Source: Candidatus Hermodarchaeota archaeon (lineage in GTDB: Archaea > Asgardarchaeota > Heimdallarchaeia > Hodarchaeales > Hodarchaeaceae). Taken from it: a DNA stretch of 21,346 bases. The stretch is taken from assembly GCA_048886185.1 (NCBI GenBank), contig JBHLKY010000022.1, forward strand, positions 53,964 through 75,309. Reading direction: 5' to 3'. The position numbers and the translations under genes are program-made. Positions 1 through 13,201 of this stretch are shown here, one piece after another; within the stretch, counting starts at the first letter, position 1; every line of letters begins with the position of its first letter. The notes beneath the pieces are model-generated. The model made no database searches. It saw nothing but the letters and a program-made list of their open reading frames with translations, and was not told the DNA's origin.

Positions 1-1025
1 CTCTCTAAAGCGGTAACAGCAGTCATCAGTGAGATAACTCAAACCACCTTTTATTGGAACGATTCCTACGATTTCGCGTTGGTTGTAAACAACACAGCTT
101 ATAATGAAAATGTCACACTTTACACGAGTACTGAAATCACGATCAATAACCAAATTATTGTCGAATTCTTAAATCGAACAGTGGAACATTATTGGTTCCG
201 CTTCGCCCCTTCTGCCGTTCTGATTGGGATTCATGACATTAATATCACATTTTCTCACGCATTCTTCCTAAACAGTTCCATAAAAGCATCCTTTAAGGTG
301 ATTAGTCGACCTACAAACATCGAAGCACGAGATACTCTCAATAACACGTTACTCACAAATGAAACAAGTACTTATTACCGTCAGTACTCTGCAGGTCACT
401 CAGATATCTTCTCCATTATCCTTAGCTATTATGATGAAGAAACAGAAGCAATCCTTAACACTATCAGTGATCCCCTTGTTGAAAGCGATGGATCGATACT
501 TGTTTACTCAACAAAAGATCCAGTCAGCTATAATTGGACTTTCATATTCAATGGTACCGCTGTCGGTAATTTTCTTATCAATATCACGTTCAACTTAGAC
601 AATTATTCCGTTGCCGCATTTCAGGTGGGATATATTCTCTCTAAAGCGGTAACAGCAGTCATCAGTGAGATAACTCAAACCACCTTTTATTGGAACGATT
701 CCTACGATTTCGCATTGGTTGTAAACAACACAGCTTATAATGAAAATGTCACACTTTATACCAGTCCAGATATCACAATTGACAATCTAGCCATAGTCAT
801 ATTCCTCAATCGGACTACAGAACGTTACTGGTTCCGCTTCGCCCCCTCTGCCGTCCCGATTGGAATTCATGACATTAATATCACATTTTCTCATTTAAAT
901 TTCCAGAACTGTTCCATTGAATTCTCTTTTACGATTATTAATCGTCCCACAGGCATTGAAGCGCGCGATGTGATTAATAAAACTTTACTTACAAATGAAA
1001 CGAGTACTTATTACCGTCAGTACTC
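1..1025 (+). repeat. Intragenic direct repeat, period 636 bp (212 aa)
   Basis: 1-122 matches 637-758 at 121/122 nt (pos 78 g vs a). Further high-identity patches at ~193-257 vs ~829-893 and ~349-388 vs ~985-1024. Confidence 0.95.
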
Positions 1026-4000
1026 GCCAAACAACTATGATAACTTCTCGATTTTAATGAAGTATTATGATAGTACTACAGAACAGACTTTGAATGTTTC
1101 TGAAGGAGAAATATCAATTCAAAAAGATGGTATAATTACAGTTAATAATTGGAAGAATAAGACAACTTATAAATGGACTTTTGTTTTTGAAGGATCAGTG
1201 ATAGGAACATATATCATCAATCTTACCTTCAATCTAGCAAATTATACATCAATTACATTTTCAATAAGATATGTAATTGTACAAGCAACAACGAAAATTG
1301 AAAATCGATCAATAGAACCAGTTCCCTCAATAATTAACGTTAAGGCGGAAAAAGTGATAGAATTTTGGTTAATCTGGCGAAGTGTATATGATGAACCTCT
1401 AAATTCATCAAACGGAGTAATGATCAACGGTACAGATATTACTTTAATAGAAACGGATCCTTTAACTGGAAATCATACGTTTCGTTTTACAAGATCGAAT
1501 CTAGGGACAATCACATACAATCTTACTTTCAAAATTGAGAATTATACAAAATATGAATTTATGATTCGTTTCAATATTTTTAATAGGACAATGTTAATTA
1601 CCGAAGTCCTTTCTCTTCCTGGTATCAGTCAGCTTGTCAATCTTTCATACGGAGAAATCTATGAATTCAATGTTTTTCTCAATGACAGTGAGACTCTGAA
1701 TCCTATTAACGCTTCTGTTCTCCCAACACCGGTAAACATTCGTTTTCTTGATATAGGAAGTGAGGGAAATCATTCTTTCCAATTTAATGCCTCTCAAGCC
1801 GGAACATTTACAAATTTGACTATTGTTTTCTTTATTCAAAACTATGAAACTTTACAGTTCAATATTTCCTTTATTGTAGCATTAGGTGAAATGATTCTAA
1901 ATATTTCACTTTCATCGCACGATAATGATTCAATCATCGACACTCTACAATATGGGGAAGTTTATAATTTCTTAATCTTTTTAAATGATAACCGAACCTC
2001 ATTACCCATTAGTGGGACACCTATCAGCCCATTACCCACATATCTTGCCTTTACAGGAATAACTGCCCCAGGAAATCACACCTTTTCTTTCAATGCTGCA
2101 ACTGTTGGAACTTTTGCTTCATTAAAGATCATTATCAGTGTCCCGAATTATAATAATTTTTCATACCTGATCACATTTGAAGTCCAGAATCGTGAATTCC
2201 TCTTTGATAAATCGTTATCTACACATGAGAATAACTCTATTGTGAATACGCTGCAATACGGTGACATTTACAGTTTTTCGATTTTCCTGTCTGACAATAG
2301 AACCTCATTACCACTAAATGGAACACCTATCAGCCCATTACCCACATATCTTGCCTTTACAGGAATAACCACCCCAGGAAATCACACCTTTTCTTTCAAT
2401 GCTACAACTGTTGGAACTTTTGCTTCATTAAAGATCATTATTAGTCTCCCGAATTATAATAATTTTTCATACCTGATCACATTTGAAGTCCAGAATCGTG
2501 AATTCCTCTTTGATAAATCGTTATCTACACATGAGAATAACTCTATTGTGGATATGCTGCAATACGGTGATATTCATACTTTTTCGATTTATTTAATTGA
2601 CAATCAAACTGGACATCCAATAAATGGAACCCCAATCACACCATCACAAATCACATTCATTGGAATTTCTTCAGCTGGAAACCACACATTTACTTACGAG
2701 GCTATTGAGGTTGGAACATTCCCTTCCTTAACAATTCAATTCACTCTGATTCATTACAACGATATATCATTTGTACTTAGTTTCATTATTCAATATCGTG
2801 TTTTTGCTTTTAATGAAGAATTATCTTCCCTTAGTAATAATTCAGAGCAAGTACTTCATTTCCGCGAGGTCTACTTTTTTTCCATATTTCTGATTGATAA
2901 TCAAAGTGAAAATCCCGTGATTATTACTCCTTCATTTATAGATCTCCCTGATAATATTACACTCGAAATGATTTCTCCTAATGGGAACTATACATTTAAA
3001 TTTATAGGAGAAACAATAGATCCATCTTTATCATTCACTATTACTTTTACGCAATCTTATTATAACACTGCTACGTACATCATCAACTTTAACATTATTC
3101 CCATGCCTACATATGCGCCAGAGATTCATTATGAAGATGAACTGATTGTTGGGGAGTTCTTAATAATTTCTGGAGAAGAATGGGTTGCTTTCAATAATGA
3201 AAATGTATCGATTACCGAAATCCAGTTATTAAATGGAAGCACACCGATATTCTTTTCACAAAGCGATGTACACGGATTTCTTTTTACAATAAACATCGCT
3301 ACTGAAGACTTTAAGCAGGGTATTCATAATTTAACACTTATTCTTTCGAGTTATGGGTATGAGAATCATTCCCTTAGTATCCCAATTGTCATTATTGGAA
3401 GAGATATTGTGATAACAATTAGTATAATCCCTGAGGTGATCAAACAGGGATCAGAATTTTCAGTTCTAGCCACATTAAATTATGGCCCTATAGTTGGTAG
3501 TAATTCTGGTGTTGGGGCTGATATTAACCTTGCTTCTCTAGAAGGAGTTGAGGTATTATTTATTCTTGATATACTATATGAGAATGGAAGCTCAATTACA
3601 TCTAGGTACACAGCAGAAACCAATGCAACAGAAACAGCGATTATAACGATATATAAAAAATATACTATTGCTGCGGAAGGGATCCAAAAAATCACAGTCC
3701 TCTCTGCAGCTACAACCTCAGGTAAAGCAGCAATACAAACCACTCCTGCTGATTTTCTTGAAAATCACAGATTTGAGAAAAGAGAGGAAATTGACTTTAA
3801 CTTATTCAATCTAATTTCGCTAATTGGTCTTTTGATTTTCAGTTCCACTTTATTAGTATTTGGAGGATTGAGATACATAAAAGCGAGAAAACAAAAAGAA
3901 ATTGATCTAGAGAAGATAATAAGTGCACAGGAAAGACCAGAAATCGAAATTGATCTCCCCCCATCAAAAACAGACATAATAACTAGGCCAAAACAATTAC

Positions 4001-11923: not shown

Positions 11924-12037
11924 AAAAATATTTGAAACCCTAGTAAAGTAACATCAGAATATCGAAATAATTATTTATGAACTAACTTAATATATCATAA
12001 ATTTCAGAAAGTAGTTAATAATTGCATGGATGGTTAA

Positions 12038-13201
12038 ATGATGCGTGTCTTACATGTTGAAGGAAAAAATCTAAAAGAAATCAATCCCCCTTATGAATTT
12101 TTAAACGGTGACGTATACGTCATCGATAATAGTGATGTCAGTGTTGGTCTCGAGAAAAAGGTCTATATTTGGTTAGGATCCCAAGCGTTTGCAGATGATC
12201 GGGCGGTTGGCGCATGGGCAGCGAAACAATTAGATCTTAAAGACAAAGAAATAGACATTGATACAGAGGTCGAGGGTAATGAATCCGAGGAGTTTAAAGG
12301 ACTATTAGAATTTTTTGTGGTCACTGGAGATACTCCTGGATTTTTAAAGCATGTTGAAGTTAATAAAGAAGAGATCTCATATGCACTCTACCGTATTCGC
12401 GATGTCGACCTTACAGACGGATCCTCATCTGATGATATTGTAATTGAAAATGTTCCTTTAAAACAGGAATCATTTATTAGTGATGATGTCTTTGTACTTG
12501 ATGCCTATCACGATTTATATGTCTGGGTCGGATCTGGGTCACAAGTTGGAGAAAAAGCTGCAGGAAATAGATTAGTTCGTAAGTTGGATGTTGCACGTGA
12601 ACGAAATCCAATGGTTTATACTATAGGAGACGGACATGAACCAAAGGGATTCTTTGATTTAGTTAATAAACTAGCGGAATCAGAAGAGGTACGAACCGAT
12701 GATGCTTCTACAATGTCTGAAGGTATAACTGGCGGTATTACTGATTTAATGGGAGCAACCCAAGAGTCAGGTGCATTACCTCCCATATCAAAACCAGAAC
12801 CAACTCCCGTACCAACACCGACACCAGTTTCTGAACCAGTAAAAGCTCCACCTCAACCTGAACCTAGTCCCACGGATCTAGGATTGGGGATACCGAAACC
12901 ATCTCCAACAAGTAAAATAGTAAAGCTTTATTATGTAGACGGAGAATTTCGAGAATTAGGAGGAAATGAAGAGGCTGTTCTAGAGATAGATGAATCGAAA
13001 CAAATGGCAACAATAAGCTTTACAGAAGGAACAGGCCTCATTACTCAACGCACAGCTGGACGTCAAGCACGGGGTATCTGTAAAACGGGATTTCTACTAA
13101 AATCTGGTTATCGTGTGGGAAAGCAATGTGAACTTAAGGAAATTAAAGGAGAAAGAGAGATTCACGATAGGCTTTTACAAGTAGGACATAAATACAGGTA
13201 A
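12038..13201 (+). CDS. Gelsolin-family actin regulator: two gelsolin domains, Pro-rich linker, additional C-terminal domain (387 aa)
   Basis: Two gelsolin cores: GDVYVID...VYIWLGSQAFADDRAVGAWAAKQLD...EVEGNESEEF and SDDVFVLDAYHDLYVWVGSGSQVGEKAAGNRLVRKLD...GHEPKGF. Pro/Thr-rich linker at ~12776-12910. Confidence 0.93.
   Translation: MMRVLHVEGKNLKEINPPYEFLNGDVYVIDNSDVSVGLEKKVYIWLGSQAFADDRAVGAWAAKQLDLKDKEIDIDTEVEGNESEEFKGLLEFFVVTGDTPGFLKHVEVNKEEISYALYRIRDVDLTDGSSSDDIVIENVPLKQESFISDDVFVLDAYHDLYVWVGSGSQVGEKAAGNRLVRKLDVARERNPMVYTIGDGHEPKGFFDLVNKLAESEEVRTDDASTMSEGITGGITDLMGATQESGALPPISKPEPTPVPTPTPVSEPVKAPPQPEPSPTDLGLGIPKPSPTSKIVKLYYVDGEFRELGGNEEAVLEIDESKQMATISFTEGTGLITQRTAGRQARGICKTGFLLKSGYRVGKQCELKEIKGEREIHDRLLQVGHKYR

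Follow-up and report, generated by a model that had tools for sequence, protein, structure and literature searches.

We analysed a 21,346-nucleotide (nt) stretch of contig JBHLKY010000022.1 of a Candidatus Hermodarchaeota archaeon, a member of the Hodarchaeales in the Heimdall group of the Asgard archaea (hereafter the window; G000:C22:53964-75309, + strand) and found that two adjacent genes within it, ORF2 and ORF3, encode a giant surface protein with a predicted longin fold in its cytoplasmic tail and a protein of two tandem longin-fold domains, the second of which carries the motifs of folliculin-type longins. The two genes look like an operon, judging by the sequence of all 15 loci examined, and we tentatively propose that their products act together as a longin platform, anchored in the membrane, for the regulation of a Rag/Arf-family GTPase, a reading to which we give somewhat less than even credence. 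The window sits at the end of a 75-kb contig of the source genome (G000; 4.84 Mb, 96% complete), and a preliminary description of it, made from the letters alone, had reported four co-oriented genes, in agreement with our map of four open reading frames (ORF1 to ORF4), all on the + strand and separated by spacers of 394, 45 and 114 nt (Table 1).

ORF1 and ORF2 had been described as two paralogous giant single-pass glycoproteins, and our measurements back this. Residues 109-1296 of ORF1 and 106-1292 of ORF2 were 39.7% identical, and both proteins start with a hydrophobic anchor and carry a single strong transmembrane segment close to the C-terminus, with basic residues behind it. N-x-S/T sequons exceeded the number expected from composition in both (139 versus 53 in ORF1 and 81 versus 32 in ORF2), and all of them lay N-terminal of the transmembrane segment, with none in the tails of 160 and 249 amino acids (aa), respectively. 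This is the pattern predicted for type-I, heavily N-glycosylated surface proteins. Neither ectodomain matched a Pfam family. Across orthologs the ORF2 tail retained 65-88% identity, a level equal to that of the seryl-tRNA synthetase (SerRS) or PAC2, versus ~25-62% (mostly 30-45%) in the ectodomain; because the tail is far better conserved than the ectodomain, it appears to be under strong constraint and to have an intracellular role.

That the ORF2 tail carries a longin domain, as first proposed in the preliminary description, was borne out by an AlphaFold model, by structural superposition and by Foldseek. In the model, with a predicted local distance difference test (pLDDT) of 83 overall, the transmembrane helix is followed by a basic helix, the longin domain and a small alpha/beta domain. 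The longin domain has the topology beta-beta-alpha-beta-beta-beta-alpha and no N-terminal helix (DSSP E41-48, E53-58, H67-89, E100-106, E109-115, E119-125, H132-147), and superimposed in VIA-align on the solved longins of synbindin (Z 12.8), Sec22 (Z 12.0), sedlin (Z 11.4) and VAMP7 (Z 11.4), while Foldseek matched it to Sec22b at a TM-score of 0.68-0.69. The tail matched no Pfam longin-type family at E <=1 and its C-terminal 104 aa none at E <=10, and its membership among the longins is predicted at the level of fold only. Our alignment of the family (A2) comprised 36 tails, drawn from an exhaustive search whose alignments nearly always fell at the C-terminal end of large proteins. Of the 83 genomes of the Heimdall class, 73 hold members, in multiple copies each (five in G000) and nearly always as the C-terminal end of open frames of ~400 to 6900 aa, and the named ones belong to the Heimdall group only. 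A conserved gene of 424-455 aa (L039:671-1987, L041:973-2247, L042:1013-2380) always stands ahead of the closest paralogous receptor (~1530 aa, 52-60% identity in the tail); for this gene no significant Pfam family was found, with one sub-threshold match to a PARP repeat.

The model of ORF3 (pLDDT 80, predicted template modelling score 0.70) consists of two beta-beta-alpha-beta-beta-beta-alpha domains, which we term LD1 and LD2, and a long helix. LD2 matched the Loki Roadblock-Longin structure 8YQG (Z 13.8), Lst4 (Z 11.8), FLCN (Z 11.7), a chain of the C9orf72-SMCR8 complex (Z 11.4) and the GATOR1 longin chain 8FW5_B (Z 10.7), and an ESM Atlas shape search with ORF3 returned a Heimdall cluster partly annotated as Folliculin (PF11704), archaeal Arf-GTPase-longin fusions, and eukaryotic NPR2 and Avl9. 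LD2 also contains the sequence F118-D-D-L-E-G123-P124, so that a glycine-proline (GP) motif closes the beta1-beta2 loop (between strands E112-119 and E123-129). The same motif is present in FLCN, NPRL2, SMCR8, C9orf72 and one class of Asgard longins, where it adjoins a catalytic arginine finger (PMC12290439). When seven ORF3 orthologs were aligned with four paralogs of G000, the GP motif and R197 were invariant in all 11 sequences and R191 was present in all but one (P0050), both arginines lying in the beta4-beta5 connection.

The preliminary description had presented ORF3 as a longin, uDENN-like and coiled-coil protein and linked it to DENN modules. The coil and a tandem longin arrangement are indeed predicted by the model; the DENN module has to be given up. 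Only two helices (H215-235 and H244-311) follow LD2 in the model, with no cDENN or dDENN and no DENN match in Pfam, and what had been read as 'uDENN-like' is a second longin, of the FLCN type. ORF3 further differs from the tri-longin RabGEFs (Mon1-Ccz1, Fuzzy-Inturned, HPS1-HPS4) in having two longin domains rather than three (Foldseek TM-score <=0.26). Pfam gave nothing significant for ORF3, a PDB profile search gave coiled-coil noise only, and hhalign found no match between ORF3 and the ORF2 tail. ORF3 has 52 close relatives (52-79% identity), and within the genome panel its orthologs occur in 18 of the 21 genomes of one genus; the 61 remaining genomes of the class yielded none, save for one LD2-only paralog match. 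The tail of the ORF2 ortholog follows the same restricted distribution.

The spacing of the two genes argues for their joint expression. The gap between ORF2 and ORF3 was 2-52 nt in the 15 loci, with a Shine-Dalgarno (SD)-like GGAGG or GGGAT and no T-tract, and in two of them the ATG of ORF3 abuts the ORF2 stop codon. Within the window, runs of five or more T right behind ORF1 to ORF4 on the + strand were limited to the two after ORF4, so that the clear T-tract after the last gene alone, to which the preliminary description had drawn attention, was confirmed. T5-T10 tracts likewise follow the gelsolin stop codon of ORF4 orthologs, 6-40 nt past it, in all 14 gelsolin-containing orthologous loci, while a T5 tract within 40 nt past ORF3 occurred in one locus only; the major facilitator superfamily (MFS) transporter and SerRS genes downstream have T-tracts of their own. 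The gap between ORF3 and the gelsolin gene is 114-313 nt and holds a TATA-like TTAATATA ~45 nt before the ATG, conserved in orthologous loci. From these signals, the ORF2-ORF3 transcript may read through into the gelsolin gene, which also has its own promoter-like box.

Gene order has to be read with more caution. The ORF2 tail, ORF3 and the gelsolin are contiguous and co-oriented in the genus wherever contigs allow, and SerRS, PAC2 and CDC48 (often MFS and UbiA too) keep their positions in the same loci. Inherited collinearity is enough to explain the gene order, and of the neighbourhood proposed by the preliminary description what stood is the contiguity within the genus; the synteny is unspecific, being equalled by housekeeping genes, and confined to a single genus-level clade. 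A separation of ORF2-ORF3 from the gelsolin by 146 kb in G056, at first read as a break in synteny, was rejected, the contigs of that assembly being joined by 100-N spacers; the 979 nt upstream of the gelsolin there hold no ORF3. The genomes G050, G057 and G068, which lack the cassette, are uninformative, as they also lack SerRS and PAC2 or have a contig that stops where the cassette would lie. A genome of the genus assembled as one contig of 4.94 Mb does hold the cassette (L012).

It could accordingly be argued that ORF2 and ORF3 are neighbours only, kept side by side by inherited collinearity in one genus, with ORF3 a longin protein that works on its own in the cytosol and the narrow spacing incidental. 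The reach of the background synteny into housekeeping genes agrees with this, as do the lack of an outgroup with the cassette and the paralogous receptors that have no such partners: neither an ORF3-like nor a gelsolin neighbour was found beside three distant receptors with related tails, the four closest paralogs, or at any of the listed class-wide places. Yet the ORF2-ORF3 spacer is steadily short, has SD-like motifs and no terminator, whereas nearby intergenic regions vary through insertions and gene losses, and ORF3 and the tail of the ORF2 ortholog have an identical distribution. We regard mere adjacency as quite unlikely.

A link to small GTPases is made plausible by the paralogs of LD2. 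Members of the GP-longin family (A3) occur in 81 of the 83 class genomes, and two of the four paralogs examined in G000 directly adjoin genes for Gtr1/RagA-type GTPases (Table 1). One of these places, on contig C30, is an operon-like cluster in which a prokaryote combines Rag-type GTPases with a longin of the folliculin type. Plausibly, GP-longins of this type work with Rag/Arf-family GTPases, a statement at the level of the family that says nothing directly of ORF3. An Hsp90 gene lies just upstream of the pair on contig C28, and related genomes hold tandem GP-longin genes of ~346 aa each (G058:C1:2891656-2893149, G067:C228:3097-4575) which, by analogy, could be FLCN-FNIP-like heterodimer partners.

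From the folds, motifs, gene order, spacing and family distributions described above we infer binding between tail and ORF3, GTPase regulation and signalling, in the following manner. The variable, rapidly evolving, glycosylated ectodomain of ORF2 would make the external contact, and its tail, with the basic helix, a non-catalytic longin and the small alpha/beta domain, would recruit ORF3 to the plasma membrane or pair with it there. LD2 of ORF3, a longin of the 'GAP-longin' type, would regulate a small GTPase of the Rag/Arf family, with R191 and/or R197 beside G123-P124 making the role of a GTPase-activating protein (GAP) the likeliest. ORF1 is a paralogous surface protein with a different tail, and the gelsolin might be co-transcribed by read-through. 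A complex prediction of ORF3 with residues 1835-2063 of the ORF2 tail scored 0.00, below the mark, and was counted neither way.

Several observations weigh against this platform. Neither the cassette nor the 13 kb upstream of it holds a gene for a GTPase. All known cassettes come from a single genus, in which the whole region is collinear, and the nearest GP-longin to other longin-tail receptors lies 21 kb away, so that the pairing is no general rule. One of the two candidate arginines, R191, is deleted in the homolog P0050. The assignments of ORF3 and of the tail rest on predicted folds and short motifs, with no Pfam or PDB sequence match, and the two longins of ORF3 could pair with each other, in which case the tail may be dispensable.

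A further explanation accepts the pairing of ORF2 and ORF3 and does away with the GTPase: the two proteins would serve as an adaptor or anchor that sorts, positions or clusters the giant glycoprotein, and maybe ties it to the cytoskeleton or to ESCRT- or coat-like machinery. VAMP7, Sec22, the sigma and mu subunits of AP complexes and SRX are longins that act in this style, and the tail longin is nearest to trafficking longins (synbindin, Sec22, sedlin, VAMP7, AP sigma), as LD1 is to VAMP7 and Sec22. The tail family, moreover, is class-wide, sits C-terminally on large surface proteins, and mostly has no ORF3-like neighbour, and the coiled coil of ORF3 suggests a scaffold. What speaks for the GTPase platform over such an adaptor is LD2, whose GP motif and arginines are reported to be absent from adaptin, TRAPP and DENND longins (PMC12290439) and whose paralogs are linked to Rag GTPase genes; we consider the adaptor fairly unlikely.

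We then turn to the gelsolin encoded by ORF4. Its residues 1-248 matched the Heimdallarchaeota 2DGel of PDB 7WHF at E 1.2e-89, and by sequence ORF4 is the ortholog of this solved protein. It had been described as a multi-domain gelsolin, which holds for its two PF00626 repeats, both above threshold and matching each other in hhalign with a probability of 99.6% (G1 versus G2); the third, C-terminal domain (D3) was not shown to be a gelsolin domain, reaching a probability of 0.2-0.3% against G1 or G2. No Pfam family matched D3, and a language-model search gave merely a lead to small archaeal proteins. The gene is single copy in G000 and has orthologs in 73 of the 83 class genomes, which encode 205-300 aa elsewhere and ~390-420 aa in this genus alone, where the linker and the C-terminal domain are added. 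ORF4 is the lineage's general Ca-regulated 2DGel actin regulator. Almost all genomes of the genus also encode the ~97-aa domain (window 12908-13198) as a stand-alone protein of ~95 aa (e.g., G000:C15:28580-28858, - strand), and the domain likewise ends proteins of ~250-280 aa.

The preliminary description had joined these parts into one possible module, in which a heterodimer of the receptor longin and ORF3 may couple extracellular binding to a small GTPase and to actin remodelling. In the full version weighed here, all three or four genes take part, the signal would pass on to the gelsolin, and the clade-specific C-terminal extension of the latter would dock on the complex. Its domain calls of a longin tail, tandem longins and a gelsolin found support at the level of folds and motifs; the tie to the gelsolin did not, the synteny being unspecific. 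In favour of the module, the genes lie side by side in one orientation wherever the contigs allow, the T-tract follows the gelsolin in 14 of 14 loci and none lies behind ORF1, ORF2 or ORF3 of the window, while MFS and SerRS end in tracts of their own. ORF3, the ORF2 ortholog and the C-terminal extension of the gelsolin are all confined to the same genus, and Lokiactin brings down an Arf GTPase and gelsolins in co-precipitation from Lokiarchaeum (PMC13716822). However, because the synteny of SerRS, PAC2 and CDC48 is just as strong, gene order provides no specific link between the gelsolin and the pair, and the shared clade restriction amounts to one evolutionary event. The gelsolin is, besides, a single 2DGel found class-wide that does not stand beside receptors in other families, where the neighbourhoods of its orthologs showed no match to receptor or ORF3 queries and only one ORF of more than 1000 aa lay within 6 kb of any of them, and the gap of 114-313 nt before it has the conserved TATA-like box. 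We hold the full module to be unlikely.

Table 1. Features of the window and of the two GP-longin loci of the same genome discussed in the text; positions are those of the window unless a contig is named.
Feature	Position	Strand	Remarks
ORF1, C-terminal 1450 aa of a 2975-aa giant, predicted type-I surface glycoprotein	1..4353	+	gene starts C22:49389
ORF1 transmembrane segment	~3802-3870	+	
ORF1 cytoplasmic tail, without longin domain	3871-4350	+	
ORF2, 2063-aa predicted type-I surface glycoprotein	4748..10939	+	signal anchor ~4781-4861; ectodomain 4862-10087
ORF2 transmembrane helix (aa 1781-1814), then strongly basic juxtamembrane helix (aa 1815-1838)	10088..10261	+	hydropathy 2.77; single continuous helix in the model (model residues 2-39)
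ORF2 cytoplasmic longin-fold domain (aa 1839-1979), without GP motif	10262..10684	+	AlphaFold2 pLDDT ~90
ORF2 C-terminal small alpha/beta domain (aa 1980-2063)	10685..10936	+	single weak structural match, Z 8.3; Pfam matches all far below threshold
ORF2-ORF3 spacer, 45 nt	10940..10984	+	no T-tract; SD-like GGGAT before ATG
ORF3	10985..11923	+	
ORF3 first longin-fold domain, LD1 (aa 1-110)	10985..11314	+	model topology; VAMP7 longin Z 11.2, Sec22 Z 10.0
ORF3 second longin domain, LD2 (aa 111-240), FLCN/SMCR8/NPRL2 type	11315..11704	+	structure matches, Atlas, motifs
ORF3 LD2 motif residues	G123-P124 11351-11356; R191 11555-11557; R197 11573-11575	+	
ORF3 C-terminal long helix, probable coiled coil (aa 244-311)	11714..11917	+	model; weak coiled-coil Pfam matches
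ORF3-ORF4 spacer, 114 nt	11924..12037	+	TATA-like TTAATATA 11987-11994; SD-like GGATGGT before ATG; no T-tract
ORF4	12038..13201	+	
ORF4 two-domain gelsolin core (aa 1-225)	12038..12712	+	PF00626 30.9 and 55.2 bits, cutoff 21
ORF4 Pro/Thr-rich linker (aa 226-290) and ~97-aa C-terminal domain (aa 291-387)	12713..13201	+	
T7 and T6 tracts, probable archaeal terminator after ORF4	13217..13257	+	T7 at 13217, T6 at 13252
MFS transporter gene	13350-14792	+	
SerRS gene	14948-16228	+	
PAC2 and CDC48 genes	within 17941-21206	-	PAC2: proteasome assembly chaperone family; ordinary housekeeping pair, synteny control
RagA-like / weak RagA-like / GP-longin / RagA-like cluster	G000:C30:7592-11322 (L046:3593-7323)	-	gaps 10-20 nt
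Genes of the C30 cluster	RagA-like 10318-11322; weak RagA-like 9351-10307; GP-longin 8536-9330; RagA-like 7592-8521		same strand
GP-longin paralog (344 aa) convergent with Gtr1/RagA-family gene (301 aa)	G000:C28:5783-7747 (L045:4284-6248)		5783-6817 and 6842-7747, 24 nt apart

The remaining parts of the region are as follows. The whole ORF1 gene spans C22:49389-58316 (2975 aa), its 5' part being cut off by the window, and contains a 100-N scaffold gap (G000:C22:53864-53963) directly before the first base of the window and within a region of ~212-aa repeats; because of this gap, neither the 2975-aa length nor the number of repeats is reliable. Its tail consists of a low-complexity linker and an ~85-aa domain, for which we obtained no significant Pfam match, no usable match with the Atlas features and, in BLASTP, no match to the C-terminal domain of ORF2. 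In one ortholog (L016:2464-3033) the ~85-aa domain of this type of tail occurs as a tandem duplicate. Glycoside hydrolases and a sugar kinase are encoded 5' of ORF1, and UbiA, PAC2 and CDC48 follow SerRS on the - strand. Where orthologous loci extend over PAC2 and CDC48, the two genes nearly always adjoin or lie within about 1 kb of each other. An insertion downstream of the gelsolin marks one subclade, and MFS or UbiA is lost in others; the inserted ~2 kb lie between the gelsolin and MFS (or what remains of MFS) in L014, L016 and L018, and between the gelsolin and SerRS in L019. Because of these insertions and losses, the region 3' of the gelsolin is more plastic than the ORF2-ORF3-gelsolin block.

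The proposed pair invites comparison with several known systems. With FLCN-FNIP, GATOR1 NPRL2-NPRL3 and C9orf72-SMCR8, LD2 shares its longin fold (Z 10.7-11.8) and a GP motif that precedes beta2, along with conserved arginines around beta4-beta5, and the likeness to FLCN-FNIP extends to the combination of a GP-bearing longin with a longin that lacks the motif, be it LD1 or the ORF2 tail. FLCN-FNIP, GATOR1 and C9orf72-SMCR8 are recruited to membranes by membrane proteins (PMC12290439). Unlike these eukaryotic longin GAP complexes, ORF3 lacks a DENN-like domain at its C-terminus, shows no homology to them in sequence, and places two longins and a coiled coil in one chain, while the membrane partner proposed for it is a giant cell-surface receptor where theirs is a scaffold or a lysosomal transporter. 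Among structures, LD2 was best matched by the Loki Roadblock-Longin protein 8YQG (Z 13.8), which is built on a similar plan of two domains, the first a roadblock in 8YQG and a longin in ORF3, the second a longin in both, and the Asgard GP-motif longins (PMC12290439) have the GP motif and arginines in common with LD2. ORF3 departs from 8YQG in that its first domain is a longin and not a roadblock, in its added coiled coil, in its restriction to one genus and in its coupling to the gene of a longin-tailed receptor.

The longin SNAREs VAMP7, Sec22b and Ykt6, together with SRX-SRbeta, are membrane-attached proteins with a cytosolic longin and count among the best or near-best matches of the ORF2 tail. 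Unlike these proteins, ORF2 has an inverted, predicted type-I topology, with a glycosylated ectodomain of ~1750 aa and the longin after the transmembrane helix, and it has no SNARE motif. MglA-MglB and Ragulator-Rag use roadblock/longin dimers as membrane-associated platforms for small GTPases, and in G000 it is GP-longin paralogs that adjoin Rag-like genes; unlike in those systems, the cassette has no GTPase gene and anchoring is proposed to occur via a transmembrane receptor. As for ORF4, whose first 248 residues with their two PF00626 repeats correspond to the Heimdallarchaeota 2DGel (PDB 7WHF; PMC9433394), the ProGel, 1DGelX and 2DGel proteins of Thor (PMC7444086) are also among its closest known counterparts. 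It differs from the Heimdallarchaeota 2DGel in the proline-rich linker and ~97-aa C-terminal domain, present in this genus only.

Asgard longins of the FLCN/SMCR8 type with the GP motif (PMC12290439), NPRL2-like Asgard longins (Liu et al., bioRxiv 10.1101/2020.10.19.343400) and Heimdall 2DGels (PMC9433394) have been published already. The preliminary description knew of no account of the combination as one system, and our full-text literature searches agree, having found no description of a transmembrane longin-tailed receptor or of this gene combination. Apparently new, in that we did not find them described, are the class-wide giant type-I surface proteins that end in a cytoplasmic longin, the ORF3 family coupled to one of them, and the extended 2DGel.

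Asgard genomes are rich in longin and roadblock proteins and in small GTPases, little is known about which regulator acts where, and operons seldom help to assign regulators in these archaea (PMC10933270). The locus described here offers a concrete pairing of receptor and regulator, a longin-tailed transmembrane surface protein beside a GP-motif longin of the 'GAP type', with the operon-like Rag/GP-longin cluster of the same genome as a control. If the pair does bind and regulate a GTPase, the membrane recruitment of folliculin-like regulators would predate eukaryotes and could be driven from the cell surface; and if the gelsolin belongs with the pair, surface sensing would be connected with the actin-driven protrusions of cultured Asgard archaea. 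At its fullest, and in our estimate improbable, form, the proposal is that of a giant surface receptor, in the archaea most closely related to eukaryotes, wired directly by its own longin to a folliculin-type longin regulator and co-expressed with an extended gelsolin, forming a prokaryotic outside-in path from surface contact through a small GTPase to actin. Were this true, such a path would be a forerunner of eukaryotic adhesion or phagocytic signalling.

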